The notes beneath the pieces were generated by a model. That model worked only from the letters and a program-made list of their open reading frames with translations. It searched no databases and was not told the origin of the DNA. The position numbers were made by a program, and so were the translations under genes. Positions 5,301 through 61,772 of a DNA stretch of 64,000 nt are shown here, piece by piece. This DNA is from Spizellomyces punctatus DAOM BR117 (Eukaryota). Location: NCBI GenBank assembly GCA_000182565.2, contig KQ257459.1; one strand, written 5' to 3'. How positions within the stretch are numbered: the stretch's first letter is position 1; the number at the start of each line of letters is the position of its first letter.

Positions 5301-8300
5301 GCCACCATCGGCGCCATCTACTCCGGGTAGTGAAGGTGTCAGAAGATCGGCATCTCCAGCTAGCACTCCTGGAAGTCCCGCACGGGGTTCTGACTACCAA
5401 TTGGAACCACCGATAAGTCAGCTGCTTCTAAAGAGCGATGAGGAGCTCAAAGCCTTGGAGAATTTCAAAATATCTCTACCCGGTATTGGCTACGTCAGGT
5501 GGCTGGAACCTGTTAATCTCCTTGAAGCCTCTCCGACCAAAAACCGTGAAGGTCTTGGCCAGATTGCTGGCACAATTGTCACATTTCAACCAAAGTTGAT
5601 TACCGTATATCCTGATGACGCAACTAAGCCGCCGGTGGGGCATGGATTGAATGTTCGCGCAGAAGTTGCGTTAGAAAAATGCTGGGCTGTTGATAAAACG
5701 ACTAGAGAGTTCATTTTGGATGTAACTGATCCCCGACACGATCGACTTCTTAAAAAGCTCGAAAACATGCCCGAAACTGTTTTCATTGGTTTCCATAATG
5801 AAACTGGGACGTGGAAGTTCCAGGTGGAACATTTCAGTCGGTACGGATTGTTGGATGATGACGAGGAAGCGCCGCCACAGCCACCATCGCAGCAAAAACG
5901 GCCACAAACTGATCAGCAAAGTCCGTTTTTTCAGGACGCCCAGGTTGGCACACAAGGAGCGGGTCAACCCAATCTGGGCGATACTAGTGCAGACTCGGCG
6001 TTAGAGGACTCGATGATTCATATTAAGCGTCGTCCTCTTGTCCGGAAGCGACAAATTGTTGACCTGGCTAAAGAGTGGGAAGAAAATGTAAGCGAAGATT
6101 CTGAACAGGAAGAGGAGATACTAGAAGAAGAGGCAGAGGAAGAGAGTGATGATGAACCAATGGGAGTCTCCATGATTTATAGTCCGTCAAAACATCAACT
6201 GCCAGTCTCAACGAGTCCGACGATCGAAGAACCTGCATCCCCTCCCCTCACTCCGCGCGAAAAGAGATCATTTCGAGAAATGGAAACGGCTCACAGTGTG
6301 CAGAGAATGAAGGCATCGCTGTTTGGACCGACAACCAGCTCGCCTAATCCGACGGCTAAAAAAGCGACACCTAGAAAAGCTGTTCAGTTCAAGGTACCGG
6401 ATGTATCAATAGGCGGTGATTCCAGCTTTAGCGAGTCACAAGTAGACTGGTCCCTTTCCGTATCTTATACTCCACGAACGGGAGACAAACGCTCTCATCT
6501 TGATATTCCGACGCAAAAGGGATCTGAGGAGGTTGCGCGTCCTCGCCGTGGGTTTGGACTGTTGGACGAACTGGAAAACGCAGGAGCTGTGCAAACATCG
6601 ATGCAAGTAGACGTGGATGCGCAAGTTTCGCCTCCTGTGTCGCCAAAGAAGTACTTTAAAACGGACGCAAAGACTCTTCCGCCGCTGGAAAAGAGCGTGA
6701 TGTTTGGGCAAGATAAGCAAATCGTTGACGCGGGACTGATGATGGGGAGGAGTTTCCGAGTTGGATGGGGTCCTGGAGGGACATTTCTTTCAGTGGGTGG
6801 AGCTGTCGGCGGCATCAAATCCTTTTCAAACATATCCATACAAGCTGTCAAAGTGTTTGGTAGCACGGATGAGAAGACAATATCGATTGAGCGCAAGCGG
6901 CACGAAAAGACTTTGGAAAAGGCTTTAAATTACTCCACTACTGTGCGAACGGCTGTTGGATTGGACACTAGATGGGAGTATCAGATCCTTGATGAAGAAG
7001 AGAAAGATGATACATCTACTGGAGTTTCATCAGTACCCAAAGCCGTTTGGAAGCCAGATTTTCACTTTGTTCCTTTTGTTGACGCCATGGTGGAGGGTAA
7101 TGACTGGCCACGCCTTCGTCACGGTGAAGATCAAGTCTTGTTTGAAGAACAAGAGGCCCAAGTGTGGAAGCTTGCCAACGCTTTGTGGGATCCACTAAAT
7201 CACTCGAATGCGCCACAGTCGCAGTCACAGCTTTTGGAAAACGGATTAAGGCGCGAGATGATCAGCCGGTGGCTAAAAGAAGCCGTTATGAAAGAGACTA
7301 GTCGTGGGGCACAGTCAACGCATGGTGCTCGCAAGATATTTATACTACTCGCTGGTCGTCAAATGGATAAAGCTATCATGGCTGCCATAGAGAACAAGGA
7401 TTTAAGACTCGCCAGTATCCTGAGCCAACTTGGTGGACCCGGGAATCGAGTCTTGGCGTTGCGTCGAAATGCTCACTCTCGGGACCAAGGCACCGGTGGA
7501 CATGGCATACCCGGTCGATATGGAACGGACGAGGTTGTGGCTGAGATGTTAGTTAAACAATTGGACATTTGGGAAGCAGCCGAAGGGAAAGGTGGCAGTG
7601 GAATTGATGGCGAATACATGAATGTTTGGAAATTGGCGGCGGGCAACCTCGCGACCTGGGGATTAGAAATATTTGAGCTTGTTCAAGATTGGAAACGGAC
7701 GTTTGGGCTATTCTTTTGGTACGGTGGGTCAGCTGCATCGAGTCTCAACGAGGCTCTTGAACAATATGAACAAGGCTTTGAAGCTTCGAATGATGTAAGG
7801 CCGCCACTGCCAGCGTACCTCGAGGCCACTCAGGATAAAGTCACTGGAGACCGGCCCAAGGATGTTTGCTTTCATCTCCTTAAACTCTTTACGGAGCGGG
7901 ATTATCTCCTTGAAACCGCCCTTGACCCCAAAAGTATTTCACCGAACCAGCTTGACTATCGGGTCAGTTGGTTAATCTGGAATATATTGGCAAAGGTGAA
8001 AAAGGTGCGGAGTTCCGCGGATTCGAAACTGGAGTCTGTTGTCATTCGCGAGGCTTTCCCTGATGGCACAACCATGGAAGATGTTACCCAAGTCGAGGCA
8101 CGCTCAGTATCCACCGAGGATCGTTTGACGAGGGACTTGATGTGGCAGTTAGAAACGTTGGGCTTGTGGAAGTGGAGTATTTATGTTGCCCTTTTCTTTA
8201 GTCGGATAGAGGAACGGGAAAGAGCGATTCGAGAGTGTTTGGCTAGGTGGTATCCTCTGGCGGATAATAGCGGGAGCTGGATGGGTAATTCGGCGGTACT

Positions 8301-9335
8301 AGATGCGACGGAGGTGGACATGATATGTGATACTGAGGAGAGTGAGGATTGGAAATTTCTGGTCGAGACGCTCAAGGTGCCCAAGGAGTGGATTCATGAG
8401 GCTAGGGTACATTTCAAATTCTTTGCAATTTCTGATAATTGTTTTTGAAACTAACCTTGATTGCTTGTTTCTATTGTGGATAGGCCATGCGTGCCAAGTA
8501 TGAGGGAAATGTGGTGCAAGAAGCGATTAGTCTGATTGATGCAAAAGAGTATATTGTTGCACATCGGCTGATTGTCAGTAAGATTGCCCCTGAGAGGATC
8601 GTCAATGGTAAATATCACACAATTGGCATGTTCGTCCCTCGTTACGGTGCTAACACTGTTGACGCGCCTTGTATAGAGGAATACGATGACCTCAAGACAC
8701 TGCTTGCGCACATTCCACCAGATGCAATCGAGACGAGAAGTTGGGAGCGCGGCGGCAAACTCTTTATGGACTACATTGAGCTGATGGAACAAGTACCAGA
8801 AGTCATCAGCAAAGCACGAGAGTATTCAGTTGGCTATTCCCTCTGCAGCAGTCTTTTCTCCCGATCCGTCCATGCAGCATCCAGTGCTATTGACACTTCT
8901 GAACGACATCGGCGTGCAGCACAGGATGATTTGTCCTCTATTTGGATGCCCAAGATAACTCAAACGCTAGAACAGATTGCCGATGTGCGAACATTTGCCA
9001 CTCCAATCGGGTTGGATCGATACGGGTCGTCGTCTTCTTCTCGAGAGGGTGTTGCAAGTCGGGTGTGTCGAACCGAGATGGCGACACGACTTGTCACGTT
9101 ATGGGCGGATATTGAAATAGTTGTTGGGGGTTTGGAGGGTGGCAAGATTGAGGTACGTATTTTTGAGGTGCTTTTCCTGGCGATGCTGTGCACAGGTAGC
9201 TGACTTGCACTCCTTTACTTGTAGCCTATCAGTGGAGAACTCTTGGCAACTCTACCTATCCCTACGGGAAGTCGCATGATCATGTTACATCGGGTTGCGG
9301 CGGGTTGGTTTGAACAAATTGGTGTGGATGCATGA
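2373..9335 (+). CDS. NUP98: Nucleoporin Nup98-Nup96 precursor (Nup189/Nup145-like), multi-exon
   Basis: N-terminal FG repeats (MFSGYGSSGFGQ...). GLEBS motif NISAMPAYKHWS(TD)ELRFQDY. Autoproteolytic domain ending WKFQVEHF|SRYGL (HFS at 5830-5838). Nup96 start DAGLMMGRSFRVGWGPGG and Nup96 helical region (DWKRTFGLFFWY, QLETLGLWKWSIYV). Last exon ends ...WFEQIGVDA*. Confidence 0.96.
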
Positions 9336-24527: not shown

Positions 24528-26158
24528 TCATCTAGGATCTCTCGCCAAACCTTCCCACAAAGCCCTCATCAAACTCCTCTCATTCGTGACCGGTACATCA
24601 CCGCTACTCTCCCAGACAATCACACCCTTGAGTCCTCTTTCCCATACATACCGACATTTAGCACGAATGGATTGGGGTGTGTCGTATGAGTTTAGGATGC
24701 GGCGATGGGGGTCGTATGAGTATGATGCTTGAGCCTTGAAAATTTATAATGATGGTCAGTGGTGATTTGTACAATGAACAGCGTTTACAAAACCCTCGAG
24801 GATTGGGTTCATTACTCTACACACCTGTTCATCCCAATACTCCACTGCACCAGGTCTAGGCAGCGTCTTGTAGTCACACACTCCATCCTCCCAGCTTCGG
24901 TCTTCCACGACACCCGATGAAGGCGCGCCCAAACCAGTCGTATTGGCAAATCCTCGTGAGTAGGCCGCGGCGCCTATGACCAGTTTGTGAGGGGGCACAC
25001 CGCGAGATAGATATGCTTCAACTGAACGGGACACGGAGAGCGGGGCATATGGTGTTGAGATGAGGTTGGTTTGATGCCCAGCGGGACATGGTCCCCATGC
25101 AGAAGACGCAAAATCTGGTCACATCACTGATTAGAAAGACGACGTGGAAGAAAATGGAACGAAAAAAAGAACTTACCATATGTCATCACATTGATTGTAT
25201 CCAAATATTGCACCATCTCGCGTAATGGTAAAACATCCATTTTCGCCGGATCACCCGTCACACAAGCCGAAATCTCAAAATGGGAGCGACCAGTTGCATT
25301 CAATCTGTGTCGCAAGAGACGAAGAAACGCGCCAAAGTTTTGTGGGTCCTCTGCTCGGACAATGTTGCCGGGGGCACCGTAGTTTTGATTCGGTGGAGAA
25401 ATGTATTCCCAGTCTCTGTGATAGCAACGGGTGTTAGAAAGCGAATGAAATATGTTTGGTAGACAATGAGAAACAAACAGCAACTCACATATCGACCCGG
25501 TTGAACACCCCTGGCCACCGCTCAAAACATTCCAAAATCCCTTCCACGAAAGCTTCGCGTTCCCTCTCGCCCTTTACGGCATCTGAGAATCCCTTACTCA
25601 ACGTCCACCCACCAACACTCAGCCCAACATTAAACTTTAACCCAAGCTTCTTCAACTTAAGCAACTGCCCAAAATTCCCCCACGGGCCTTTATTCTCGGG
25701 TGTCTCGTTCCATGAGTCTGGCGGTGGGACGCCTTCATCGGGGTTCGTGTACCGCTTGTCCGTGTCCGCCCATGCATCCGTAGAGGTGGGAACGAGGTGA
25801 TGCGGCGGATTTGGTGATGGACGAAGGTCAAAGAAGGCGTAGTTGATATCAGAGATGTATTGGATTGGAAGGTCCTTTATTTGAAAGTTTCGGCCGTAGG
25901 TTGCCCAGTTGGTATGGTAGACTATCAGTTTTTTACCGGTGGCTGTTTTTGAACATGGAGCAGAAGGAAATTGAAACAGCGCTTAGAGAACTGCCTTGTG
26001 TTCGTTTACTGGGATTGCAACCGCGCTATGCACTTACGCCATTCATAAACCTGGTCAGTCACACCATCTTGGGCCATGTCTTTGGACTTGTTACGGAAGA
26101 GTCGGTAAGCGAAAAGCAGCAACGATAAAACGAAAAGAGTCCTATATCGATATCGCAT
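24528..26158 (-). CDS. GH18 chitinase (catalytic domain only), multi-exon
   Basis: LIVYHTNWATYGRNFQ, INYAF, GNFGQLLKLK, LSVGGWT, spliced catalytic motif FNRVDIDWEY, INVMTYDF, KLVIG..YSRGF, SYDTPQSI..K, GLKGVIVWESSGD. Start is either 26158 (hydrophobic leader) or 26077. Confidence 0.95.
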
Positions 26159-26488: not shown

Positions 26489-28354
26489 CTACACCTGAAC
26501 CTCCGACGTCCTTCTTCTATATCTGCTAATAGACCTCTTGAAAATCGCATATTTACGCCCAGGGTATGCCTTTATTGTACGCCATGTACGCCAACTCCAT
26601 GCTCGCCACGCTGCAGGCGAGTTCGCCTTGGCACGCCTCCTAGTCCACGCCATGAAGCTCCCTACAGACCACTCTGCTTTCATAAGTCTCTCCAACCATC
26701 GACCGAAATCCATGCTCCATTGATCAAATGTTTTGTAAAACAGCCAAGACACGACAAGGATCATGGCGAAGGTGGAGCAATAAACCAGACCTACTTTCAG
26801 CCACCATGGTCGGCCAGGAAGACCTCGAAAGATGATTGAAACCATGATGGAGCCAAATGTGAGGAAAACGACGGGGTGTAGGAGATACATCCCGAAACTG
26901 ACTCTTCCCAAGAATTTGATCGGGCTAATTTCGAATACTCGTTGGAGCAAGGGTGTTACTTCGAGGAGTAACGCGAAGCAGGTTGATGAATAAAAATAGT
27001 TGATATGAAATTGATACCACGGCGGCTCAAAGTCCCGTCCGATAGCAGCTTTACCAGTGTCGAATGACCAGCCTAAACAAACATGTGAGTCTTATGACTC
27101 TAATATACGGTATGATATCATCATCGAACCGCATGCACTCACCTGCTGACCATTCTGACAGTTTATCGGACAGTTTTGGAAACTGCACCATAGTAATTAG
27201 CGTCAAGAACACCAACGCAAGTCGAAACGGCCATATCAACCGAGATGACTGTATTCGTCCGAAAACGCCGGATTGTGCGAGATCAGCAAGCCACAGTCCG
27301 ACCATAAAATCGGCAAACCACGTTTCTGTCCAAAAGAACCAAAAGACCAAGACAGCGTAGATGACCCATCGATGTCGAAAGTACGATTGGGTAATTAGCG
27401 CTACTATAAAGACGAGGAACGATCCTTGCAGCTCTATGCCAATTGTCCATTGGGGTGCGTGTGGGTAATTGACTGAGCGTCCTCCTGGAACAAACTACTC
27501 GATCAAACGCATCAGATGCATTCGGCAGCAATGGAAATGAGCAATAACACAGTTCCACGTACCAACGTCAAGGTGTTTAATATGGCATTACTCAATGTCG
27601 GCTCCTCAAAGCCTTTGACTGTGCCTTCTGCCGATCGCCACGAATCTAGTACGGAAGCCGCGTCATGAACTGGCGCATACCAATTCAGCCGATACACTGC
27701 CCAATGTATCAGAAGGGATCCAAAAACAGGGATAATCAAGCGAAATGGTCGTCGAAAGAATGCGCTCGCGAGACGATCTGAATCCGGTTTTTTGAGATAT
27801 GCGATGGCAAGGACGCGACCCGAGAGAATGAAAAAGAGGCTAACCGCAAGTTTCCCTGCAACAAACACCTAAACACCCATGTTGAGAGTTTACAAGAGGG
27901 ATTCCATGTATATAATCATGACGATCAGATATGTGTAGCATACCTTTCCGAATTGATACCCGATCTTTCCCCAGTTTTCCTTGGTGGTTTGATCGTAACT
28001 CAAATTGTACAGTGTAAAGTGCTCATTCAAGACGATGCAAGCCGCTAATCCTCGAAGACCTTCCAAATAATCCAACTTTCTGACGACCTTTTTCTGCTCT
28101 ATCGGGGAAACAGGCGAAGGATGGGAAGTCACTGAGTGGGGTAATGGTTTCGTCAGCGAACATCCTGTGCTGGTGCGCGCTAAAGGAAAGATCGGCATGT
28201 CAATCTTTCTAGCGCTATTCTGTTTCTCGTCGTCAGAAACATTAAGGGTGACTTCGTCGGTTGAAGCTTCACTATCCACGGATGAAATTGATGACGGCGC
28301 TGGAATATGCAATACCTCGTGCTCTATCCTTTGTCGGGAAGCCATGTCGTTCAT
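26489..28354 (-). CDS. Acyltransferase family 3 (OafA-like) membrane O-acyltransferase, multi-exon
   Basis: KLDYLEGLRGLAA...H, AVSLFFILSGRVL, FFRRPFRL, QWTIGIELQGS, FLGRVSFGMYLLH, SWLFYKTFD, with multiple TM segments. Confidence 0.92.
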
Positions 28355-34351: not shown

Positions 34352-34375
34352 TACTACTACTACTACTACTACTAC
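34352..34375 (+). repeat. (TAC)8 microsatellite just upstream of the kinase ATG
   Basis: tactactactactactactactac, 18 nt before ATG 34394. Confidence 0.9.
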
Positions 34376-34393
34376 AAGCTCCCTCCCTCCAAC

Positions 34394-35611
34394 ATGGGAC
34401 CAGACGTTGCGACTACTGCTGCTCAAGGGGAAGAGATGGGAGAGGAAACGACAGGGATAAAAGAATCTGGCAAACAACCTGATCAGGATACGACTTGTCG
34501 TCGTCCTCGTGAACCAGCACAGCAGCATGAACAGCAGCATCATCACCATCACCATCTCCACCTTGATAACCTCTTGATACCCTTTAAAAAGCTTCTTCAC
34601 ACACGGTCAACGACAACCCCTCCTCCCGAGACTTGCAATCCAAAAAAGGACGCTCTCCTCCCAGTCAACCCAATCCGCACCATGTCAAACCCAACGACCC
34701 TCCGCGAAAAATACGGTACACCCCAAACCCTCATTGGCCGGGGAGCAAACGGCTCCTGTTACGCCGTCCGCAAATCCAACCAACCTAAACCCCAATACGC
34801 CTGTAAAGAATTCCGACCACGCCATAAGCACGAATCCGAAAAAGAGTACATGAAGAAACTCTCTGCGGAATTCTGTATCGGGTCCCAAGTCCATCATCCC
34901 AATCTTCTCCGAACTCACGATCTCGTACTCGATGGAAATCATATTTACACTGTAATGCCCTACTGCCCACACGGAGACTTGTACACATATATCCAAACCC
35001 ACCCAAAACTCTCCATGGACCAAATCACCCATTTGTTCTCGCAGTTGATCCATGGCGTTGCCTACCTTCATAAAACCGGTATCGCCCATCGAGACCTCAA
35101 ACCAGAAAACATTCTCTTTTCCAAACCGGAGCACATCAAAATCATTGATTTTGGGTCCGCTGATGTCTACAAGCCCCCAACGAGTACCTTTAATCGTTTA
35201 TCGCATGGAAAATGCGGAAGTGGGCCGTATATCCCCCCAGAAGAACTCGCTTCACCTGCATCCTATGATGCACGTAAAGTAGACGTATGGGCATGCGGAA
35301 TTATCCTCATGGCCATGTTAACTCATCGATTCCCGTGGGCGAATGCGACAATGAGTGATGTGGATTATGCGGCCTATGTAAAGTATGTGGAGGCAGTCAA
35401 GAAAGGAACAAATGCTCGCCCGCCAAAGATTTTTGAGAGTCTCCCTCAAGGTCCTCGAGACCTTGTTTTCAAAATGTTACAACCCGACCCGCAACTTCGG
35501 GTGCAGATTGATCAAGTACTTGAAGATGAGTGGTTTAAAAAAGTGGATGAAGGGGAATCGCCTGATGATGACGACGATGAACAAAAGTCTGATGCAGAAT
35601 GTGGTCGATAG
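34394..35611 (+). CDS. HAL/NPR-family Ser/Thr protein kinase (Sat4/Hal4-like), intronless
   Basis: IGRGANG, YACKEFR...ESEKEYMKKLSAEFCIGSQVHHPN (HAL signature), HRDLKPEN, DFG, GKCGSGPYIPPEE, YDARKVDVWACG. Confidence 0.93.
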   Translation: MGPDVATTAAQGEEMGEETTGIKESGKQPDQDTTCRRPREPAQQHEQQHHHHHHLHLDNLLIPFKKLLHTRSTTTPPPETCNPKKDALLPVNPIRTMSNPTTLREKYGTPQTLIGRGANGSCYAVRKSNQPKPQYACKEFRPRHKHESEKEYMKKLSAEFCIGSQVHHPNLLRTHDLVLDGNHIYTVMPYCPHGDLYTYIQTHPKLSMDQITHLFSQLIHGVAYLHKTGIAHRDLKPENILFSKPEHIKIIDFGSADVYKPPTSTFNRLSHGKCGSGPYIPPEELASPASYDARKVDVWACGIILMAMLTHRFPWANATMSDVDYAAYVKYVEAVKKGTNARPPKIFESLPQGPRDLVFKMLQPDPQLRVQIDQVLEDEWFKKVDEGESPDDDDDEQKSDAECGR

Positions 35612-36289: not shown

Positions 36290-38086
36290 CTACCGTCCTC
36301 GACCCTTGACCCCAACCTTTTGCTCTGCATCCATATGCTGCCACGAGTCAATCCGTTTGGGAGGCCGTGGCGGGAGTGGTTTATCAATCGCCACAGGAAC
36401 AGGGACAACCGGCACAGGAACAGGAACCAAAACCGGTCCATATGCCTCATTGTCATCAGAAAAGGGGTCCATGTCCAGCAAGTTTTGGATAGGTTGCGTC
36501 GGTGGATGGGTTGAATTTGGAATCGCCACGGAAACATCCGGTTCTGAGCGTCCGTTTTGGGAGGGTATGGAACGCTGAGAGGATAGAAGCTGTGATCGGG
36601 GAGTACCGACAAAAGAAACGGGACGCTGTTCGCCTTGCGTACGTCCCAGCCCGCTACTAATCGACGCAACCGACACGGGTCGTTGTCGAGCGGGTTTAAC
36701 AGGTCCCTCCATGCCACTATCCAATGATACCGATGAAGTCGTCGAAGAGGTGGACGCAGGTCGACTGGGCGTCGTCCCAACAATAGAATTTGGCCGTCGT
36801 TTCCGATCGAGACTCACAGTTTCCCGTGCACTCTCACCATCATCAAATAAATCCTTCCATCTCAAACACAGTACGGCAAATAACGTGCTTGAAAGCCCTA
36901 GTGTGGGGCAGAAAATGACTTGGAGGTTGGGTATACCCATTTTATTTGTTGGTTCCCGGGCTTGGACGCGGAACAGATGGCCAAAGAGGAGGCAGAGGAG
37001 GGCTCGATTTTCTAGAGGGAGTTGAGTAGCGAGGGAGCGGGCTTGAGAGAATCGCTGGGGATCCGCTGCAATTTGAGCCGGGTCGGGCGGTCCGTTTGTT
37101 TCCGGTCCTTGGTATATGTGAGTAAACTTTGGCGTGAGGGCGCTGGTTAGGGTAGACTCGGGTACTTTCATATAAAAGAAGATATCATTAGCCCGTTTGC
37201 AGGTACATTTGAAATGCACGGATACACGGAAATACCAACATTCTCTCAGCCAAGCTTTAAACAATGATGCAACGGCATTCGGATCAATCTGTTGTCCAAG
37301 CAACTCAACATCAGCTCCACTATTGAACATGTTTTTCAGATGCCCGACTTGGGTCGTCGACCCCGATACACGGTATATTCCAATTTCTTCAAGCCCTATC
37401 ACAATAAAAAAAAAAGAGTTTAAACATGAAATGTCCATGTTGTCTCTATAGTCAGAACCGCAGGAAAAAGACAACCCACCAAACACATCCAAAAACTCTA
37501 CACACCGATACGCAACCGCCGGTACATTCCTCACAATCCAATCCGGGTATCCCATATTCCCCACATTCCCCACTCTAGATATTTGCACAACTTCACTCAA
37601 CGACACACCAAACACCAAATTCGGTACATCTCCAGCCGAACGAGAAGGGGTATGCCCACCTCGAGCAGAAGCACGTTCACGAGCCTTGTTTTCCCATTCT
37701 CCAACAACGACACGAGCCTTGTTTTGGAGTTCGCTGCCTTTTTCGGCGGCGCGGGCTCGCCATTCGGCTGTGACTTTGGCGGCCTCTGAGGCCTTGCTTT
37801 TGAATTTTTGTTTGAGTTGGGAGAGACTGGGTTTTTGGGATTGGTTTTGGGTTTGGTCGGTGGGAAAGGTGCTTGAAGTGGTAGAGGGATAAAACGCCAG
37901 GATTTCTTCCGTGTCGTGTAGAGCGTCGGAAGGAAAACCTGGCGATGGCAAAGTCGATACGTCGTCGGCGTCGTTTTCAAACGGACTAAATTGGTGCTGC
38001 TGCATGTCGGTGATGGGTGCAAAGCCTTGGGAAGACGCCTTTGTACCCGGTCGTGGTGGGATTATGGGTGGTGGAAATCGGGACAT
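36290..38086 (-). CDS. RhoGAP domain protein, 3 exons
   Basis: VFGVSL, VPAVAYRCVEFL..GLEEIGIYRVSG (Arg finger), DPNAVASLFKAWLRELPE (after removing introns 37396-37479 and 37165-37239), NKMGIPNLQVIFCPTL, Pro-rich tail. Confidence 0.93.
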   Translation of the reverse strand: MSRFPPPIIPPRPGTKASSQGFAPITDMQQHQFSPFENDADDVSTLPSPGFPSDALHDTEEILAFYPSTTSSTFPTDQTQNQSQKPSLSQLKQKFKSKASEAAKVTAEWRARAAEKGSELQNKARVVVGEWENKARERASARGGHTPSRSAGDVPNLVFGVSLSEVVQISRVGNVGNMGYPDWIVRNVPAVAYRCVEFLDVFGGLSFSCGSDYRDNMDISCLNSFFFIVIGLEEIGIYRVSGSTTQVGHLKNMFNSGADVELLGQQIDPNAVASLFKAWLRECWYFRVSVHFKCTCKRANDIFFYMKVPESTLTSALTPKFTHIYQGPETNGPPDPAQIAADPQRFSQARSLATQLPLENRALLCLLFGHLFRVQAREPTNKMGIPNLQVIFCPTLGLSSTLFAVLCLRWKDLFDDGESARETVSLDRKRRPNSIVGTTPSRPASTSSTTSSVSLDSGMEGPVKPARQRPVSVASISSGLGRTQGEQRPVSFVGTPRSQLLSSQRSIPSQNGRSEPDVSVAIPNSTHPPTQPIQNLLDMDPFSDDNEAYGPVLVPVPVPVVPVPVAIDKPLPPRPPKRIDSWQHMDAEQKVGVKGRGR

Positions 38087-38314
38087 TTGTCTTTAAAAGC
38101 GCGTGCGATGGGTGAAACCAGTATAAACAGGCGAGTATCCCCAAACAATAATCCTCAGGTACATCCCTCGGGCATCGTTCGTCACAAAACCCCTCGTCCC
38201 AAAAACCTTCTCAATAAAGAAAACCAACAGCGCAAAAGACCTTGCCAGTGAGTCCAAACCGCAAAATAAAAACCAACGCAGGCCTCGCGGGCCACGCCGT
38301 CGGTGACTTGCAAT

Positions 38315-51355: not shown

Positions 51356-52924
51356 TTACAATAGATGCGAAATGCCTCGTGTAAAATCAAATACTTTCAC
51401 CGCTCCATTGGCAAGTCCCCATGCAATATGTCCATCGCCTACCTCCACCACACCTCGTACAATCTTTCCATTGAACGTGAGTTTTCTAGAGGCTCCTCCG
51501 ACCCATGGTTCGTATATATACACGTCTGCGCCTGCCCTTCTTTTCAGCCATATGAAGCTGGATGTTGCTCCCAAGTCCCGCGTCCACAACGACGAAGTTG
51601 GCACATGAATGGGGATGCACACGGACTTTTGCCTCTCGGGAGAGACACGTTCAAACCATACACCATCGTCATTACTACTTATAATATACCCGTGAGTAAA
51701 TCCGTAGTCGAACATTTGCTTTTGGGAGTCCTTTGATCGGTGGATCTGGTCCAATTGTTTGCCGGTGCGATCATAAATAACTACCAAATCACCTTGTAAT
51801 GATACCAAATATTCCCCGTAAAGCCCAAAAAAGGAGCGCTGAGCATAAAAGTGCTATTAGCTTACAAGTGAGGAATCCATTGGGTTTTTATGGATGCCTT
51901 ACATGGTCAAAGTGATCTGGTTTTATAATCCCCACAGTTTCTCCAGTTCGCAACTCCCATATCCAAATACTTCCATCTTGTGCGGAAGAGTATACACGAT
52001 TACAATGCAGTCGCACCTCAATGATCGAGCATGTGTGTCCGTCCAATGTGCGAATAAGGTTCTTGGTTCGTAGATCCCAAATGTATATTCTCCTAAAATC
52101 ACGCGGCCGTAAACATACGACAAGTACGTCTAAAACCTCTGCGCGTTCTTTGCAGCACGTACCTATCAAAACTTGCAATAACAATCACACCATCTTCACC
52201 TGAAATCTCAAAGTCCACCGAAATGACAGTTCCACCCTCAAGTTCAGCGATGCAACTTTGTTTGTCAAGATCCCACACTTTGACAGTCCGATCGTAGGAT
52301 CCACTGACCATAATGTTCTTTTTGATTCGTACGGCGTGCACTTTGTCGCTATGCAGGTCAAGGACATACTCCACAGGTGAATTGTGAAAGAAATTGTAAT
52401 GTTTGGCGCAGGTGTGTTTTGCATGTGGGTCCAGTTGTCTTGGTATGCGCCAAGGACACCGTCGGTGCATCTCGTCGAGGCGCTGCTGCCATAATGCTGC
52501 GGTATTTTTGAACGTATGCCATGTACGAGATACCTTTAAAAGCGAAACATTGAATGAATGCCTACGAATGCGTGCATCGCAAACATAACAGGCGTTGTCT
52601 TCCTACTCGACCCATGGCGCCCAAATCCGGGATATCAAGATATCGGGCAACTTTCAGTGAAATCTCCAAAGGAAGTTGTCCAACAAAGTCTACTGTCTCC
52701 GTACGCTTTGCTTTGAGGAGCGGTAAGAGCGTCTCGACATCGCCATACTTGCATTTCTTGACGAGCTCGGCGAGACTAAACTAAACGGGGTCAGCGCAAT
52801 TGACGTGCAGTCTCGACACGAATGTAACATACAATGCTCGACGTGTCGCTGCGGATGAGGAGGAAAAGGCCTCAATAGCCTTGTTCAGTTCGTCTGGCAA
52901 CTTTACTGTGCCCATCTCACCCAT
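51356..52924 (-). CDS. F-box/WD40-repeat protein (Cdc4/Met30/beta-TrCP-like architecture), multi-exon
   Basis: F-box DFVGQLPLEISLKVARYLDIPDLGAMGRVSRTW (spliced). WD40 repeats HSDKVHAV...MVSGSYDRTVKVWDL and GHTCSI...YSSAQDGSIWIWEL. Ends VKVFDF. Confidence 0.92.
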
Positions 52925-53148
52925 GACCCATCACATTCTTCAAAAGCACAGCCCAACATTTGAACTATGAACTGGCGATGCTTGCAATTTAGCCAAAATA
53001 GGCAAGTCCTGCATACGTCATCCATTTTGAAAGATTATAAACAAAACCCCATCGCAAAGTTCCTCGGTGGAAACTCAGATCTTACCCATCATCGCGCACT
53101 AATTCAGAAACAATAACAATAATACAGTAAATAAACTATGTCCAAAGT

Positions 53149-56100
53149 CTAACCATGCCATACGCTTGCATTCGATGCTACGGAATCTCTTCCTCTAAAA
53201 GAGAACCCATCTACGTCATTCAACCCACGGTCCAAAGATCCAGACGGAGTGAGAGACGGTGGCTCTTCTGTGAATTGCTCATCAAAGAAGCTGACGTCGT
53301 AGTCGTCTCTCTGTCATCCATGCCACCAGTTTTAGTCATACGGCCTTAACAATAATATGACACATCCAAAACTCACCAGTTCTGGTCTGAAAGGTACTTC
53401 TACCTCCTTATTAAACAGCTTGATCCAGTCTACACCCTTGAAGAATGCATGCTGCTGTACCATCTTTCGCACCAATCTTTTCGCAGGGTTTCGGTCTAGG
53501 ATTCTGTGAATGAAATCTTGTGCCAGAGGTGATACGTGCGACGGGAATTCGATGGGCGCGTCGAGGATGTTTAACCGGATCTCTTCGCGGTCTTCAGAGT
53601 AAAAGGGATGGAAACCGCAAAGCATTTCAAATACCACCACACCGTAAGCCCAATAGTCGGCTGCTGCGGTGTGCGGATGTCCTTGCAACACTTCTGGAGC
53701 CTAATCATGAATGTCAACAATAGTCAGCACATGAAAACAGCATCTTATATCATGGAGTTGAAGCATACCAGATATTCCAACGTTCCAACCACAGAGATTG
53801 TATCAGAGTCTTCATCTTCTGGGATGTCATTCTCGTTTTCATGCTTACTGAGTCCGAAATCCGTGATTTTGACATGCCCGTCCCTCGTTAATAGGATATT
53901 TTCTAGTTTCAGATCTCTAGAAATTCCAAACAACAGGTGAGTTACTTTTCTTGGGGGGAGGGTATGAGCGTACCATGACAGTAACTTACCGATAAATAAT
54001 ACCTTTCCCATGAAGACATTCCAAACCCAATAACAACTCTGCAGCATAAAACCGAACTCTCTCCTCCGAAAATCGGCCAAAGTGACTAACGTGAAAGTAC
54101 AACTCCCCACCGTTCACATACTCCATTACCAGATAAAGACGCTCGGGTGATTGGAATGCGTAGTGAAGACCAACGATGAAGGGGTGGTGAATTGAGCGCA
54201 AGATACGGCTTTCTGTTCGTGGATCGGTGGACGTTGGAGAAGAAGGAACATCTGTGTCTATAGACGCTTGCGGTTTTGTGAGGACTTTGATGGCGTAGAC
54301 CTTTTGGGTTGATTTTCGACTGCAGAGCAGGACCTAAAGGTGTCAATGGATCAGCACTTGCACTCTAGTACGAAAGCGTGTGTCGGAGACTGTTTCTACC
54401 TTTGCAAACTTTCCTCTTCCAATAACTTTATGTATCTCAAAGTCCGCCATCGTCATTTTAACTTCCTTCTCCTTTCCTCCCACTTCCGGAATCTCACTGT
54501 TATCTTTCACCAAAGCCGGTTCCGCTCTTGCAAGCTCGGACGCTACCGGACTTGGCGAAGGTGCCTCACTTGGACTCTTCGTTTCGACTTCTTTCCCACC
54601 ACCCACGTGTGCACCCACTTTTAAGCAATTAACCCAGTCCGCATATTCACCCTCAGACCCGGCAGCCATGACAACCTTCTCCCCATTCTTTTGTAAAACC
54701 ACAAATACAAATGGGCGCTTGTACATTCCGGATTCTACTCTCTCCACAGCACATCCGTCCAATTGAATGATAATTGTGCCCCGCTCAGTAGCAAACGATG
54801 AGATGACTGCCTCGTTTTTTGTGCTTGGGCGAAGAATCAAGGTACGGTTATCGAGATTGACCCAATGTGACGTCCATGCTTTTTTGGTTGCGTTGTGAAT
54901 ATGTAACCAACCCTCTTTGTATAGTGTGGTCGGAATCTGAATCGGACGGTTCATGGCTCTACTGAACGAAGAGGAAGAAGAGGAAAAAGATGTAGTCCGG
55001 GGAATCGTCGAGACGGGTGCTGTAGTTGACGAGGAGAGCGCCTTGAAAACTTTGAAGAGCTCGCCGTATTCTGGTGAACTTTCTTCCTCGGCATTGACGC
55101 CAAAAAATCCTGCGAGTTTTGCAACACGTTTCGCGGAGGGTGCTTGTTGCTCTTCCAAAGTGTATGTACTCTCGAAGCTACGGAGTTCGTTATGGGATAT
55201 CTACATTGACGAGTACTTATTACTTGACATATTCTGCGTCGAGCTGGTGCAAGTGATACTTACCGGCTTATGCCTCAACAAGTTTTTAGTTGCCTTTCTC
55301 TTGAACAAGAAGAATTCATTATCTGTCCACTTTAGCATTATATCGTACATCTTCTCATCACCGTGCAGCTCCCGTTCATCTAGACAGCATCATTAGTATC
55401 ATCAGCTGAAAATCGAATGACGGTCCGGGGAAATAACTCACTTCCAGAATGCGGCGCACATAGAAACAGGCCATACTGTTCTCCTGTATCTTTAATCATC
55501 AACTTATTCATTAAGGCTAACTTTGCCTCTGCTACAGAGGCAGGCATTGGAAGACGGAGGTTACTGTAGGTAAGATTGCCAAAGTGAACACGAACAATGA
55601 ACTGAGATGCGGCGTTGGGGAGGGGTGGTGGTGGACCAATCGATAGCGGCTGATACGTTTGAGAGCGTTGGTTAGCCATTGAAAAAACATGTTCAAAGAT
55701 GGTCATCGTATAAAACATACTCTATCCCCTTTTGACGAACGTTTGGCGATCATACTTTGAATCTCATCCATCTCTTTCTGTTTTGCGATACCAAAAAAGT
55801 CTGCAAGCTTTTCTGTTCGTTTGGCTGGTTCCTATCGCATTCAAATTCTGTTAAGAACCGTGCGGAAACTGACAAACAAGCCACTTTCGTACACGAACCT
55901 GCGACGCAACTGTCCCTCCTGATGCAGCATTCATCAACTCGCCGGCTACTGAATGTCTCGATCGCAGATTGAACAAGGCAGCGCTGCTCTTTTTGCTCAC
56001 CGTTGCTGACATTGGGCGTGATGGCTTTTGATGGACAACTACCGGTGGATCAAAGAGAGAGCTGACCGATGCGGAAGCTGAGCGGCGACGGCTTTGGACA

Positions 56101-58350
56101 ACGTTAGCGGGTCCTGCATCACCTGTTGACACATTAGGATCCTGTCAGAGGTGAAATTGGTAGTCAACAAAAATGTGAGATGAAGAATGAGCAGTTTTCG
56201 GCGCAAGCTATCACAAACATACCTCTGGCTGGTTGAGGTTGATCAAACTCTTGCTACTGCTTCCCTTCAGAAGCCCCTCTTCGCTATAACTATCTCCACT
56301 CTTCCTCAAGGCCTTTGACGGCCGCCTCTGAGGTGAATTCACACTCTTCCGGTTCTCAATGCCGAGAACATATGCCAGCTTTTGTGATCTCAACGCGTCA
56401 TTACGTCGCTTGAGGTCTTCGGCTTCCCTCGCTTCTTTGACTACGAGAGCATCTAGGTCAGTACTGGATGGTAGACCGAGGATACCCGCCAGCTTGGCTG
56501 TGCGCTTGTGAACCTGCCAATGGGGGTAAGCAAACAATGGTATCAAAACCGTTTGACGTCCTTAGAGCTTTTCTTACCACTTTGCGGAACGAGTACTTGG
56601 AAGTTCGATTCCACGGTTCAAAAGGCTTCTCTGCTGGCTCCAGGAATCTCGATTCTGTTTCATCTGGGAACGTAATTTCAGCATTCAGGACTTCAACATG
56701 AAAAAATCCAGAGGATAACCGGGGCCATTCCTACCATTGACCCACAAACCCCACCCAATCTCCTCTTCCAACCCCTCAACAGCCACCAAGATCTTGACAA
56801 CATCCTCAACTTTGGTTTCCGATCCTACTACAATCCACCGAGTCTTTGACTTTTTTTCCTCTATTTGCACAGGTATTGACCACTTGATTTCTGATTTTCG
56901 GCGCAGACGGAGTTTAATTGTGGAGGGCGGTGGGGCATGTATGTGATCTATGGGTGTATTTGGATCTATGCGAGTTTCGATGGGGGTGCCTTAAAACAAA
57001 GAACAGCAGGCTTTTATTTAGCGTGCTGGACGGTAGTAGCTGACAGCATGCCCACAACACCTCACCATTCATTCCAACGTCCATTAGAAATACCCTAAAA
57101 CTCTCTAAAACCTCCACAACTCCCATCTTGTTCAAAGCCTCCATTCGTACTTCGTTGACGGTAGTGTTTGGAGATACGGTGAACATGTTGCAGGTATCGT
57201 CCTCCAAGTACATAAAAACAGGTACAGAGCCATCTGTCCGTAATGGTGCAGCCATCTTTGCGTCGTATAAAGGTTGTGCCTGTGGGGGAGCGGCATTCGG
57301 ATCCTCCAAGGTGGGAAATTGTAGAGCGAGAGGAGAGAAATTAAAAGTTGGAAGTTCGGTAGTGAGGGCGGTTGTGACATTATCATTAGGACTATCAGCG
57401 TCAACTCCTTTTGTATCGATTCGAAGCGGCCCGAGAGATGGACCTTGGCGTAGCGAATCGCTGGCATGAGATGCTTGTCGAGTATGTGCACCGGACGACG
57501 AACGAGGGCTATATGATTGTTGGGATGACAATCGGGCACCGCTTCCCGGAGGACCAAAATTGAGCGTACTTCGAGCACTCTCTGGGTACGAGCTGAATGC
57601 AAAGTTGCCCAACGAAAGGGTACTTCCAATCTCTGGTCCAAATCGCTCTTTTATCCGCTGTGAAAGCTCCTGCAGGTTGGAGAATGTGGGCAATTCATCG
57701 CTCTTGGTAACCGTAGATGCCGACGACATGGATTTACTGCGATCCAAGGAAGCCAAGGGCGAGTTTATATGGCTTAGAGAAAGTGCTGGCCCCATCCCAA
57801 TGACTGTCACTGGTCTTGACGGCTTCGTTGCGCTGCCTGGAACAGGCGGTGGTGGGGTGGCACTCCTCCTCGAGTTCAAGGAAGTACTTGGGGCATCTTC
57901 GAGAATCGGATCGTCTTTGATGAGCGTATGCTGCGTTGAAACTTTTGACAAATGTCTCTCGATTTTGAAGCTGGGCTCGAAAATGGGAAGACCAATATCC
58001 AAATCCTCCGTCTTCGTCAAAACTGAACTCTTGACAAATGTCCCACCGTCCATCCCCATAACATCGCCGCCATTTTCATCATCACAAGCACCTCGCAAAG
58101 CAGATGCGGTAACCAACGTCGGCGGATCTTCTGTGGGCCATAGTCTTTCCTCTAGTTTTCCATGATATCGAAATTCGTTGTCATTGTTCTCGCGTCTGCC
58201 CCATGCTCCACCTCTTGTCTTTGCATCTAACGTAGAGGAAACCGCTCCCGTCGGCTTCTTTTCCGGTAGTCCTGGAAGGTCAGCTAAGGCGGCAGGGTAT
58301 TTGTCTGATTGCGTGGCATCGATGGACTTTGACCGGCTATGCAAGGACAT
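53149..58350 (-). CDS. Akt/PKB-like AGC kinase with PH domain and three RA/ubiquitin-like domains, multi-exon
   Basis: Kinase: FEIHKVIGRGKFAKV, YAIK, HPFIVGLHYAFQ..RLYLVMEYVNGGELYFH, YRDLKLENILL, TDFGLSK, GTLEYLAPE. AGC tail PFRP...DVSFFDEQFTEEPPSLTP...VDGFSF. PH: KEGWL...W...EYADWVNCL. Three upstream beta-grasp-like segments ending in LRRK, SFRK and FKRK. Confidence 0.92.
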
Positions 58351-58824: not shown

Positions 58825-61772
58825 TCAGAGTTGCGATTTGTTTGGTAGAGCAGGGACAGCCTCCCTCACATATCCTTCTCTAGATTCAACTTTTCTCCAT
58901 TCTCTTTCGTCGACATTATCCTCTTCATCACTGTTTCCTTCTGTCTGAACACCACTTACACTTGTATGATTGTTTTTACCCTTTTTGCGGTGCTTGGTGA
59001 TAACCGTTTCATTATGGTCATTAGCGGGTTTGTGCCCGAGACTCGTCTGAGATAGACGAAGGCTGGCGCGAGAACCGAGTTCGTTTAGTTTCGTCAATTT
59101 ACTGGATGTTTCTTCGTCGTCATCGTTGTCTAGTTCGTTTGATTCTGCAGGCTGCTTCTTTTTAGTGATCTTGTTGGTTTTTTGGTGTTCTGATGGTGGT
59201 TCGCTTTCAGAGGAGGACTTGTGCGTTTTGTGGGTAGAGCTGGTTGTCGACTCGTCCTCGGTAGTGTGATCTGGCCGCGACTTTTGTAGTGTACGGGTGG
59301 ATCTGGTTGTAGACTCGTCATCTGAAGTAACATCCGGCCGTGACTTTTGCACCAGTTTACGGGTGGATTTGGTAGTAATTGCCTCGTCCTCTGAAACATC
59401 CGGTCGTGACTTTTGCAGCAGTTTACGGGTGGATTTTGTTGTCCCCTCGCTGTCATTGTTCCTAATGTCTGATCGCGACTTGTGGGAATTGGACTGCATA
59501 ACACGAACTTCGCCAGATTCACCGTACACCTCGTGCGCATCTGATGACGGCTCCGGAGTGACGATTTCTTCAATTTGGTGGTCAGTTACTTCGGTAGGAG
59601 GTCTGGCAATATGCTTGCGGCGTGTAGTGATTTCCTCGTCGTTTTCACTTTCCGCCTCTGCCGCCGCTTTCTTGGGCTTGGATTTGCCGGTTAGAATCTC
59701 TTCCTCGTCATCGGTAACATGCTTTTGTTTTCTGCTGCGAACGGTGGTGGTTTCCTCGTCGTCCTCATGTACCTCTGCATTGGTTGCTTTCTTCCCCGGG
59801 TGAGACTTTACGGTCTTTTCCACTTCGTCCTTTTGTTCTTGTCCTTGCTTTTTCCCTCCTTTGTTGGTAACGGGTGCGACTTTCTCTTCCTCCCGGGCGC
59901 GGACGGCAGCAGGTTCCGCGATCTCCTCCTTGCTTTTGTATATTTTGCGGTACTTGTGGGGACTACCAATGCGTTCTTGTGAGGTCTCAACTGGTGTTCT
60001 GCTTGTTTGAGATACGTCGCGTCCTTCGTCGTGTTTTCGAGCGACCTGTTCTGATGCTTTCTTGGGCTTTGCTTGTTCAACTTTCTCTACGCGTTTCGCC
60101 TCTGCAGGGGCCTGTTTGGAATTGGGCTGTTTGCTTACCACTTTCTTGTGTGCGGCTGGTTCAACAAGCTCGTTTTCTGGTACATGTGGAGGCTGGCTAC
60201 TCGACCTCTTGGCCTTCACCTTCTTCCGTATGCGAGCGGCCATCTCCCCCAATCTCCGACCTCGTCCACTGTCGCTTTCCTCATCCTCAGTAGCTTCCTC
60301 GGTCACCGCTGGGTGTCCTTTCTTTGGCAATTTGCGGATGCCTGCCATAAACTCATTTCTCTGTGTCTGCCCCGCTAGCCCCTTGACAGGATGTTCAGAG
60401 ACAATGGGTGCATTGACATTATATTTACCGCGGATGAAGGGATCATTGTTCGAGACGACCACGTAGGCCCCGTTATGTGTCAGCTCATCGACGGATTGAA
60501 TGCGGTGGCCGTCGAGGGCATAGAGCTTCTGAATCATACCCGTCACGAGGTGAATCTGGGTATTGAGATTCTCCAAGAGCTGTAACGGGCGACCTTTCAG
60601 CTTACATTGACATCCATCTCTTCAAAGGCAAACTGGTCACCTACCCTCTGTAGATTTGGGAACCGCTTTTTGGTAACCGTGACAGTTTGTCCAATATGAT
60701 ACAAATCTCCATTTGGAAAAAACGTTACAACACGGGGAAACTGCAAGCATTCAAAAAAAGCATAAGAAAAGTCTCCCCAACATTTGTGCCAGAACGTTCG
60801 ACTTACGTCGTCTTCATGTTTGTTAGCCTGTGCAGGATGCTCTATATGGTATGTTGTTTGCTTGAAACCGTCCGCAACGGCTGCAACCAGGTTCTGCCCA
60901 TCATGAATCTGACGGAGATTGCTAATTTTGTGACCATTTTCTGCGTCGTAAAGTCTTCGGACGCTGATGCGGAGGAGTTCTGTAAGGTTTTTGAGGAGCT
61001 GAGGGAAATGGCGTTAATAAATCAACAGAAATGCATTGAGCATTAAGAAAAGGTGTAAATAGTAACGTACCTGATCAAATGTTCGACAGTTTCGGTAGTT
61101 CAAAATCATCTTGATTCCAGCAGATGCACCATCCCCATTTGTGAAGACGGTGACTTTGTAGGCTTTGCTCTGCACCAAACCAATTGCCGTTAGAAAATGC
61201 TTTTACAACGCAGTAGCGTGATACTCACTGTAGGTCCAAAGATGGGTCGCTCTGGCTCTTTCTTACGCCGCTCTTGCACCTCCTTTGGCGCCTTCGAAGT
61301 TCCAAACCGCTCCTTGATAATATTCACTCCCCACCCACTCGGACGCTTTGTTCGGATGAGGGCAGACTTTTCTCTGGATTCACTATCGCCATTTGTCATG
61401 CCGGACACGGCTGATGGGGGTATATCGGCGGTAATGAGGTAGGGCACCTTTTTGAAACTTTCGCCACCTGTTGCCACGTAGACGGCGCCATCTTTCAGGT
61501 CGTCTAGTGTTCGGATGATGTGACCGTCGAGGGTGAATACTTTGCGGACAGCGCCATTGACGAGGTTGATCTCGTCAGAGAGTCTGGAAAGAAACTGGAT
61601 AACAAACTAAGCGTTCAGTTGCATCAAACAATCGTATTCGGCCAGTACAAATGTATACCTGTTCAAAGTTGCGGTAGACTCGGGTGTTGATCACCAACTT
61701 CTTCCCTGGCTCATACAAGTCTCCGTTGCGGAATACTCGAATCCGTTTACTTCGGAACTCGTCGAGAGACAT
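58825..61772 (-). CDS. Doublecortin-domain protein (DCDC2-like) with three DCX domains and a long charged tail, multi-exon
   Basis: DCX1 KRIRVFRNGD...AVRKVFTLDGH..LDDLKDGAVYVATGGESF. DCX2 KVTVFTNGD...VRRLYDAENGH..IHDGQNLVA. DCX3 VVTFFPNGD...IQKLYALDGH..VDELTHNGAYVV. Confidence 0.92.

Follow-up and report, generated by a model that had tools for sequence, protein, structure and literature searches.

The stretch analyzed here, 64,000 nucleotides of contig KQ257459.1 from the chytrid Spizellomyces punctatus DAOM BR117 (hereafter the window), carries on its minus strand, between positions 58350 and 53149, the gene of an AGC-family protein kinase in which ubiquitin-like and Ras-association (RA) domains are joined to a PH domain and a catalytic domain. 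Taken as a whole, we read its product as a large AGC serine/threonine kinase with a disordered N-terminus, tandem ubiquitin-like domains, an RA domain, a non-canonical PH domain and an intact kinase domain that would act as a Ras or Rap effector, and we hold this reading with a confidence that falls just short of even. The architecture suggests direct control by Ras-type GTPases, and the best-supported reading appears to be that of a membrane-recruited AGC kinase with a targeting module of the RA type rather than of the type that binds phosphatidylinositol 3,4,5-trisphosphate (PIP3). Ras or Rap binding itself is suggested by domain family and fold.

An RA domain upstream of a PH domain

Pfam analysis of the 1457-residue protein reports two overlapping RA hits in its central part, both above the gathering score: RA (residues 773-854; E 6.1e-11, 43.2 bits for a cut-off of 21) and RA_2 (residues 774-848; E 4.4e-14, 52.8 bits for a cut-off of 27). 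This RA domain, the third of three beta-grasp segments and hence referred to as RA3, is encoded at positions 55297-55604 with intron 7 inside. It is followed by a PH domain (residues 959-1059, positions 54619-54921; E 5.9e-8, 33.6 bits for a cut-off of 25.1). Both domains had been proposed in an initial reading of this DNA made from its letters alone (hereafter the sequence-only reading), and both are recovered by Pfam above cut-off.

A predicted model of residues 713-1069, built with 10 orthologs, has a mean predicted local distance difference test (pLDDT) of 66; values range between 70 and 89 in RA3 and between 80 and 93 in the PH domain, and stay below 50 in the linker of ~104 residues that separates them. 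In this model, RA3 superposes onto the RA domain of Grb10 with a Z-score of 13.5 and a root-mean-square deviation (rmsd) of 1.5 Å over 77 residues, and onto that of PLC-epsilon solved with HRas with a Z-score of 12.4. When the whole model is submitted to Foldseek, the 14 best-ranked matches listed are all RA-PH tandems (E 5.5e-10 to 1.2e-7), those of lamellipodin, RIAM, Grb14 with HRas and Grb10; the titles of the RA-PH structures among the matches name HRas and Rap1, and the RBD-PH of SIN1 comes at rank 47. The RA-PH cassettes of the MRL proteins (RIAM, lamellipodin, MIG-10) and of Grb7/10/14 bind Ras or Rap at membranes. What the S. punctatus kinase has in common with these crystal structures is the domain order, RA then PH; rigid packing of the two domains is not predicted, a point on which the model cannot exclude packing. 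It differs from them by its ~104-residue linker, predicted to be flexible and containing a conserved motif, and the two kinds of cassette do not superpose as a unit (~20 Å). Moreover, MRL and Grb proteins are adaptors, with SH2 and BPS domains in Grb7/10/14, whereas here the cassette is fused to a kinase: the Pfam scan of the protein returned no SH2 or other adaptor domain, its C-terminal partner being the kinase, and since no SH2 was found we do not consider it an MRL or Grb protein. As a side observation, the RA domain of one family member (P0146, residues 149-209) also matches the Pfam family RA_3, 'PHLPP protein RA domain' (E 1.8e-5); PHLPP likewise has an RA domain followed by a PH domain, and may provide a lead to the origin of the cassette.

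A PH domain devoid of the phosphoinositide signature

The modeled PH domain comprises seven strands and a C-terminal helix. HMMER aligns the S. punctatus protein (P0001 in our set) with full-length Akt2 (8q61) colinearly across PH and kinase, residues 958-1438 against 8-467, and places KEGWLHIHNATKKAWTSHW opposite KEGWLHKRGEYIKTWRPRY. The strand-1 motif KEGWLH is identical in both proteins. The equivalents of Akt K14, R23 and R25 are I, T and H, exactly as the sequence-only reading had it for the PH pocket, and the K-Xn-[KR]-X-R phosphoinositide signature is absent. The R25-equivalent is K or R in none of the 28 family members that could be read by eye in the printed alignment (a 29th row being out of register), and 7 of these 28 have a basic residue at the R23-equivalent; the K14-equivalent is a Lys in 4 of the 9 aligned orthologs. 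As judged from these alignments, the missing basic signature is a property of the family and not of the S. punctatus protein alone. Searched by itself against the sequences of the PDB, the PH domain gives no significant match, the best one being Tiam1 (E 0.067), and Akt is not among the 8 matches listed. Its structural matches, TAPP1 (Z 14.9), IPCEF1 (Z 14.8) and Akt (Z 14.1), are effectively tied and point to a generic PH domain. Because of this lack of a PDB sequence match, of the tied folds and of the family-wide absence of the basic residue, descent from the PIP3-binding PH domain of Akt finds no support.

An Akt-related AGC kinase domain

The catalytic domain (residues 1119-1383) is encoded at positions 53440-54441, with introns 9 to 11 inside, as delimited by Pfam, by the alignment with Akt2 and by its motifs. 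Pfam reports Pkinase over these residues (E 7e-68, 229.3 bits for a cut-off of 31.7; profile positions 1-263) and Pkinase_C over residues 1405-1444 (E 7.4e-6, 27 bits for a cut-off of 20.9), the latter within the AGC C-terminal tail that is encoded, together with the stop codon, at positions 53149-53310. The catalytic motifs are intact, namely the VAIK lysine K1148, D1248 of YRD, D1266 of DFG, and APE. The activation loop contains an acidic insert (HENENDIPEDEDSD) followed by TISVVGT, which brings S1288 opposite T308/T309 of Akt; of 9 orthologs, seven have Ser at this position, one has Thr and one has Glu. The tail displays a turn motif, T1425-P, found as S/T-P in 8 of the 9 orthologs, and a hydrophobic motif, V-D-G-F-S1441-F, in which Val replaces the first Phe of F-x-x-F; the form V/M-x-x-F-S-[FYL] occurs in 6 of 9. 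The stretches YRDLKLEN, EYVNGGELYFH, the acidic insert with TISVVGT, and VDGFSF had been singled out by the sequence-only reading, and all are found. By its catalytic domain and tail, the protein is an AGC kinase.

Compared alone with kinases of known structure, the S. punctatus protein scores 268-270 bits with the kinase chains of Akt2 and Akt1 and 264 bits with PKC-theta. A profile of 9 orthologs gives 411-414 bits for Akt (kinase-only chains), followed by PKC-beta (369 bits), PKC-iota (368 bits), RSK2 (362 bits), SGK1 (359 bits) and S6K1 (350 bits). Akt is therefore the nearest relative among solved structures (at most 369 bits for the others), and the earlier description of the kinase as Akt-like stands in this sense. 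A tree of the kinase domain was computed with 50 rows: 22 RA-PH-kinases, 7 kinase-only fungal fragments, 8 PH-kinases, 1 PX-kinase, 3 other short kinases, 5 RSK and 4 MSK; 90-odd RSK/MSK rows and partial family fragments (e.g. P0008, P0023, P0140, P0144, P0146 and P0150) were left out. A branch with 100% support in the Shimodaira-Hasegawa-like approximate likelihood ratio test (SH-aLRT) separates all RA-PH-kinase rows and all fungal fragments from every other row, including the PH-kinases, the PX-kinase, RSK and MSK. When the family and the PH-kinases are forced into one clade, a constraint chosen after inspection of the tree, the cost is 13 log-likelihood units and the clade is not rejected by the approximately unbiased (AU) test (p 0.157). 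Of the kinase phylogeny proposed along with the sequence-only reading, the tree thus provides the branch of the family but not its placement against Akt, SGK and Ypk, as none of its rows is a named Akt, SGK, PKC, Ypk or Sch9. As far as these data go, they suggest a kinase that is related to Akt and yet forms a distinct clade. A search with the kinase region among shorter proteins was dominated by the two-kinase-domain RSK and MSK, which did not help in naming the subfamily, and yielded the fragments from zoosporic fungi. In a complex prediction of the kinase (residues 1105-1457) with the linker and PH domain (residues 868-1068), run without controls, the score was 0.00 against a mark of 0.34.

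Like Akt/PKB, the S. punctatus kinase has a PH domain directly N-terminal of an AGC kinase domain, and the latter has its regulatory site in the activation loop as well as the turn and hydrophobic motifs. It differs from Akt/PKB in an N-terminal extension of ~950 residues that contains the three beta-grasp domains, in a PH domain without K14, R23 and R25 that alone returns no significant match, in its separate branch in the tree, in a longer, acidic activation loop with S-V-V-G-T for T-F-C-G-T, and in a hydrophobic motif that begins with Val. Since its PH domain does not carry the signature, we do not consider it a canonical Akt. As to other AGC kinases of this species, a Sch9 identified as reciprocal best hit, but no Ypk2 homolog, is reported for S. 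punctatus by Shertz et al. 2010 (PMC2997006).

Two further predicted beta-grasp domains in the N-terminal half

The protein starts with a low-complexity region of ~375 residues (positions 57226-58350) that matches no Pfam family and corresponds to gaps or unconserved columns among the 9 orthologs. The two ensuing segments, beta-grasp domain 1 (residues ~376-464, positions 56883-57225, intron 1 at 56990-57065 inside) and beta-grasp domain 2 (residues ~464-546, positions 56502-56882, introns 2 and 3 inside), do not return any Pfam match either, whether exon by exon or in the whole protein, and, the kinase aside, rank with the best-conserved parts of the protein in the alignment of the 9 orthologs. 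An AlphaFold2 model of residues 369-600, computed from an alignment of 7 orthologs (mean pLDDT 75), displays two successive units of beta-beta-alpha-beta-beta-beta topology, after which come two helices, one short and one long. In the numbering of the model, the elements of the first unit are E10-15, E21-26, H32-43, E52-59, E65-69 and E87-93, and those of the second E98-105, E111-118, H123-134, E142-147, E152-155 and E170-175.

Compared with ~48,000 PDB representatives, both predicted units match ubiquitin-like and RA folds with Z-scores of 9-11, which answers positively the question, raised with the sequence-only reading, of whether these segments fold as ubiquitin-like domains. The top match of beta-grasp 2 is the first RA domain of afadin with HRAS (Z 11.0, rmsd 2.1 Å over 76 residues), along with the RA domain of Rasip1 with Rap1B (Z 11.0), and further matches are the RA domains of RADIL (Z 10.1), Epac2 (Z 9.7) and RalGDS (Z 9.7). 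Beta-grasp 1 best matches FERM F1 lobes, those of IDOL (Z 10.8) and protein 4.1R (Z 10.7), then SUMO, ubiquitin and Hub1 (Z ~10), PI3K-C2alpha (Z 9.9), the SIN1 RBD (Z 9.4) and the PLC-epsilon RA domain (Z 9.2). The tandem pair is matched in Foldseek by ISG15, the ubiquitin-like (UBL) pairs of USP7 and talin F0-F1, and it also matches kindlin F0-F1. Among the look-alikes of residues 372-545 proposed by a protein language model, RA and afadin clusters come first (score 0.89), to be taken as a lead only. In the Nowakowskiella ortholog (P0012), the whole protein reaches 22.7 bits for Pfam RA (cut-off 21); no stretch passes alone, and the best one, residues 230-290, corresponds to beta-grasp 1. 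Profiles of the two domains also match deep family members outside the profile set (P0008, P0133, P0134, P0139, P0142, P0144 and P0147), and a search with the N-terminal module, limited by its word index, returned the four closest orthologs and nothing further.

According to the models, segments 1 and 2 are both beta-grasp domains, the second being RA-like and the first having a generic ubiquitin-like fold. The sequence-only reading had proposed three RA-like segments: all three are indeed beta-grasp and segment 3 is a true RA domain in Pfam, but segment 1 is generic ubiquitin-like and neither of the first two receives a Pfam call. The arrangement recalls the tandem beta-grasp domains at the N-termini of afadin, Rasip1 and RADIL, with beta-grasp 2 closest to afadin RA1 and Rasip1 RA, as well as the tandem ubiquitin-like pair F0-F1 of talin and kindlin. 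In contrast with these proteins, sequence identity is 9-20%, Pfam makes no call here, and the PDZ, FERM and other domains that accompany the tandems there are missing.

A repeated KLAxFFG-type motif

Four copies of a short motif, K-[LI]-[AST]-x-[FLM]-[FL]-G-[VIL], usually preceded by K-R-x-A, are found in the S. punctatus kinase: two after beta-grasp 2, one before RA3 and one between RA3 and the PH domain. Copies 1 and 2 (HKRTAKLAGILGL, residues 544-556, and KLAYVLGI, residues 587-594; positions 56358-56510) flank the long predicted helix (model helices H181-188 and H196-225). Copy 3 (KLADFFGI, residues 728-735; positions 55787-55810) lies just upstream of RA3, and copy 4 (KLAGFFGV, residues 893-900; positions 55096-55119) in the RA-PH linker. 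These were identified from conserved columns and, for the first three, also by a motif scan. In the 9 orthologs, L729, A730, F732, F733 and G734 of copy 3 are invariant, and so are R890, V891, A892, K893, L894, A895, F897, F898 and G899 of copy 4. In a pattern scan, 22 of 27 family proteins contain the motif, as do 4 other proteins of the collected set, which are likewise family members or fragments; none of the remaining 129 kinases of the set matches.

In the models, the copies form short helices of low confidence. Their hydrophobic moments fall between the 21st and the 84th percentile of windows from the same protein, which does not support a classic amphipathic helix, and the language-model look-alikes of the motif region (residues 540-610) score at best 0.77, below chance level. 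No mention of the motif was found in the searchable literature, which here and below does not extend to subscription-only papers. In some orthologs, the small residue of the motif is Ser or Thr in copies 1 and 2 but Ala in copies 3 and 4, a pattern that, speculatively, would fit a pair of phosphorylation site and pseudosubstrate.

A small family in zoosporic fungi

A search with the RA-linker-PH region among 1.84 billion representatives returned 35 proteins at E <= 1e-3, 20 of them at E <= 1e-10. Pfam was run on 25 of the 35, the others being six scanned earlier and four pieces of 48-95 residues: Pkinase was reported in 19, 17 of which also have an RA match. Of the six relatives without kinase, four are at most 501 residues long and probably fragments, and two are weak PH-only matches. 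In a separate Pfam scan of 11 proteins, all have RA and kinase and 10 have PH. Nearly all relatives of the RA-PH cassette that are long enough are thus accompanied by a kinase, and the order of three beta-grasp domains, PH and AGC kinase put forward at the outset is kept across the family; the whole domain arrangement is conserved in this small family.

Judging the range of the family from named matches, its named members are zoosporic fungi without exception. Named chytrids include Spizellomyces, Phlyctochytrium, two species of Geranomyces, Powellomyces, Borealophlyctis, Rhizophlyctis, Fimicolochytrium, Quaeritorhiza and Nowakowskiella. Kinase-only fragments come from Blyttiomyces, Caulochytrium and the blastoclads Catenaria and Paraphysoderma, and in the kinase tree the one from Catenaria groups as sister with a complete RA-PH-kinase protein (96% support).

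Gene structure and transcript

The complete coding region (positions 53149-58350) comprises 13 exons and 12 introns, 1457 codons and a stop codon, and matches letter for letter an S. punctatus protein named 'AGC protein kinase' at NCBI; the limits proposed from sequence, 58350 and 53149, are exactly those of the ATG and the stop codon. A protein search with the 267 residues of the exon at 54400-55200 returned the same protein with 100% identity. All 12 introns are GT-AG, 62-81 nucleotides long and consistent in phase. Exon 9 (55200-54400) is a single open frame that runs from the post-RA linker with its motif through the entire PH domain into the first kinase subdomain with its glycine loop, so PH and kinase are joined at the DNA level. 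An alternative, in-frame form of intron 2 (56664-56734, 71 nucleotides), of 44 nucleotides (56691-56734), would add nine residues, VLNAEITFP, to beta-grasp 2. It was dropped for the annotated form, as the other introns are all 62-81 nucleotides long; the RNA data favor neither.

RNA run X7 is strongly biased towards 3' ends and confirms the last intron and the 3' end of the gene. Out of 387 placed reads, 7 spliced ones span the last intron (53311-53376), the depth on the strand of the gene is 19-46 over positions 52900-53287, and 4 reads with a loose poly-T at 52988 mark a likely poly(A) junction. The 3' untranslated region would thus extend over positions 52988-53148. Three further runs consist of unspliced contigs colinear with the genome and are uninformative on transcripts. 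From gene structure and conservation, the locus is one gene, as the sequence-only reading had claimed: its 13 exons are separated by short in-phase introns, and independently predicted proteins of other species have the same domain order.

Possible mode of action and alternative readings

In the mechanism that we propose, the beta-grasp domains would bind a GTP-loaded Ras-family GTPase, of the Ras or the Rap/Rsr1 type, at the membrane. Weak, non-PIP3 contacts, either with the membrane or within the molecule, may come in addition from the PH domain and from the KLAxFFG-type motifs, four basic-hydrophobic elements. Once recruited, the kinase would be phosphorylated at S1288, T1425 and S1441 by PDK1-type and TORC2-type kinases and thereby switched on, a mode of activation that we infer because these regulatory sites are conserved. 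Overall, the protein would be a Ras/Rap effector kinase with a RIAM/Grb-style RA-PH cassette in place of the PIP3-binding PH domain of Akt. A more ambitious version, tentative and in our view rather unlikely as it stands, holds that zoosporic fungi possess a lineage-specific AGC kinase switched by Ras or Rap through up to three RA-type domains in replacement of PI3K-PIP3 signaling, and that the repeated motifs are a new regulatory element, as a membrane anchor, pseudosubstrate or docking site, coupling GTPase binding to kinase opening.

Several observations weigh against the reading as an effector kinase encoded by one gene. RA3 keeps one basic residue of the usual Ras-contact set, Arg777 in beta-1, and has Ser/Thr at the beta-2 position where many RA domains have Lys; FERM F1 lobes, SUMO and ubiquitin fit beta-grasp 1 as well as or better than RA domains do; RA3 and PH form no rigid unit with their low-pLDDT linker, the rmsd to known tandems being 19-21 Å over ~300 columns and the template modeling (TM) score 0.23-0.35; two consecutive lysines conserved before PH strand 2 allow weak or non-canonical lipid binding; and RNA coverage of the gene is good at its 3' end only. 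The few contact residues of RA3 and the best matches of beta-grasp 1, together with the resemblance of the tandem pair to talin F0-F1, kindlin, ISG15 and the USP7 UBL pairs and with the missing Pfam RA call for segments 1 and 2, would fit a protein whose beta-grasp domains are not GTPase sensors but a FERM F0/F1-like scaffold, a binder of proteins or acidic lipids, or an autoinhibitory unit, PDK1-/TORC2-type phosphorylation being the sole control. However, RA3 is clearly an RA domain by sequence, the top two matches of beta-grasp 2 are RA domains solved with HRAS and Rap1B, and the F0 domains of talin and of the kindlin type are themselves linked to Rap1; we regard this alternative as unlikely, though it deserves serious attention.

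It is also conceivable, if distinctly improbable, that the protein is the Akt ortholog of this lineage, still controlled by lipids through a non-canonical site of its PH domain, with the RA domains merely contributing a coincident second input, like that of RIAM. Among solved kinases Akt leads by at least 43 bits, PH and kinase align with full-length Akt2 in one colinear HMMER stretch, the clade uniting the family with PH-kinases passes the AU test (p 0.157), and the Lys-Lys pair before PH strand 2 is conserved; a precedent is provided by RIAM, whose RA and PH domains jointly detect Rap1 and PI(4,5)P2, a 'proximity detector' (PMC3471229). Yet the free tree sets the family apart from the PH-kinases with 100% SH-aLRT, the PH domain, when searched by itself, does not match that of Akt significantly in sequence, and the R25-equivalent is never basic. 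As for an annotation artifact fusing two neighboring genes, an RA-domain adaptor and a PH-kinase, into one model, it seems scarcely credible: RNA is dense at the 3' end only and no spliced read or contig crosses the middle of the gene, but the gaps between coding blocks are all GT-AG introns of 62-81 nucleotides, in phase, without space for a terminator and a promoter, the RA-PH linker, the PH domain and the kinase start share one exon, and RA and kinase occur together in 11 of 11 and 17 of 25 scanned proteins from other species or samples.

Neighboring genes

Directly upstream of the kinase gene, three open reading frames (ORFs) on the minus strand (58828-61606) match doublecortin (DCX; E 6.6e-11, 5.1e-10 and 9.3e-15) and are probably one multi-DCX gene of a flagellated fungus; in the largest, near-repeats such as TTKSTRKL.QKSRPDV occur within a long acidic/basic region of low complexity. 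Immediately downstream, a WD40-repeat gene (51888-52784, minus strand) has its coding start ~370 nucleotides past the kinase stop codon and ~200 nucleotides past the likely poly(A) site, and its ORF at 52562-52780 shows, by eye, a candidate F-box-like stretch. A 600-residue ORF with a RhoGAP domain (36293-38092, minus strand; E 5.2e-23) lies ~15 kb from the kinase gene, and a second kinase ORF (34352-35608, plus strand; Pkinase E 5.2e-58), 27% identical to the RA-PH kinase, is an unrelated neighbor. Farther away are a 1534-residue open frame for a Nup98-Nup96 precursor (3844-8445, plus strand; autopeptidase S59 E 3.3e-42, Nup96 E 2.1e-64) and a GH18 chitinase-type gene across three ORFs, presumably exons (24759-25982, minus strand), beside which two ORFs match acyltransferase-3 (26492-27868). 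No small-GTPase domain was found in the 76 ORFs scanned out of the 129 of at least 110 residues in the window.

Relation to known GTPase-effector kinases and significance

Kinases that are direct effectors of small GTPases include Raf and fission-yeast Byr2, through a Ras-binding domain (RBD), and Dictyostelium Phg2, through an RA domain; among AGC kinases, ROCK, PKN and MRCK are effectors of Rho-family GTPases. The S. punctatus kinase resembles them all in the fusion of a putative GTPase-binding module to a kinase, which in the known cases is recruited or opened upon GTPase loading. It differs from Raf, Byr2 and Phg2, which are not AGC kinases, and from ROCK, PKN and MRCK, whose binding modules for Rho, Rac or Cdc42 are not RA domains but coiled-coil, HR1 or CRIB elements. 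We know of no characterized AGC kinase with RA domains, and a search of the literature for such kinases, for this family and for Akt/PI3K in chytrids returned nothing specific. The claim that the protein is undescribed holds in so far as no paper on the family was found, but not for the databases, where its record already lists the RA, RA_2, PH and kinase Pfam domains. It is an architectural variant of AGC kinase new to the searchable literature, the protein and its Pfam domains being already public.

If its domains do not bind a GTPase, the finding shrinks to an unusually decorated, lineage-restricted AGC kinase. The short motif, present four times and strongly conserved, is a concrete and testable lead. 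Chytrids and blastoclads have motile, crawling zoospores, and Spizellomyces is genetically transformable. Should the RA-type domains prove to bind Ras or Rap, the protein would represent an AGC kinase directly wired to a Ras-family GTPase, of which we found no described example, and another, PIP3-free route by which an Akt-related kinase may be brought to membranes.

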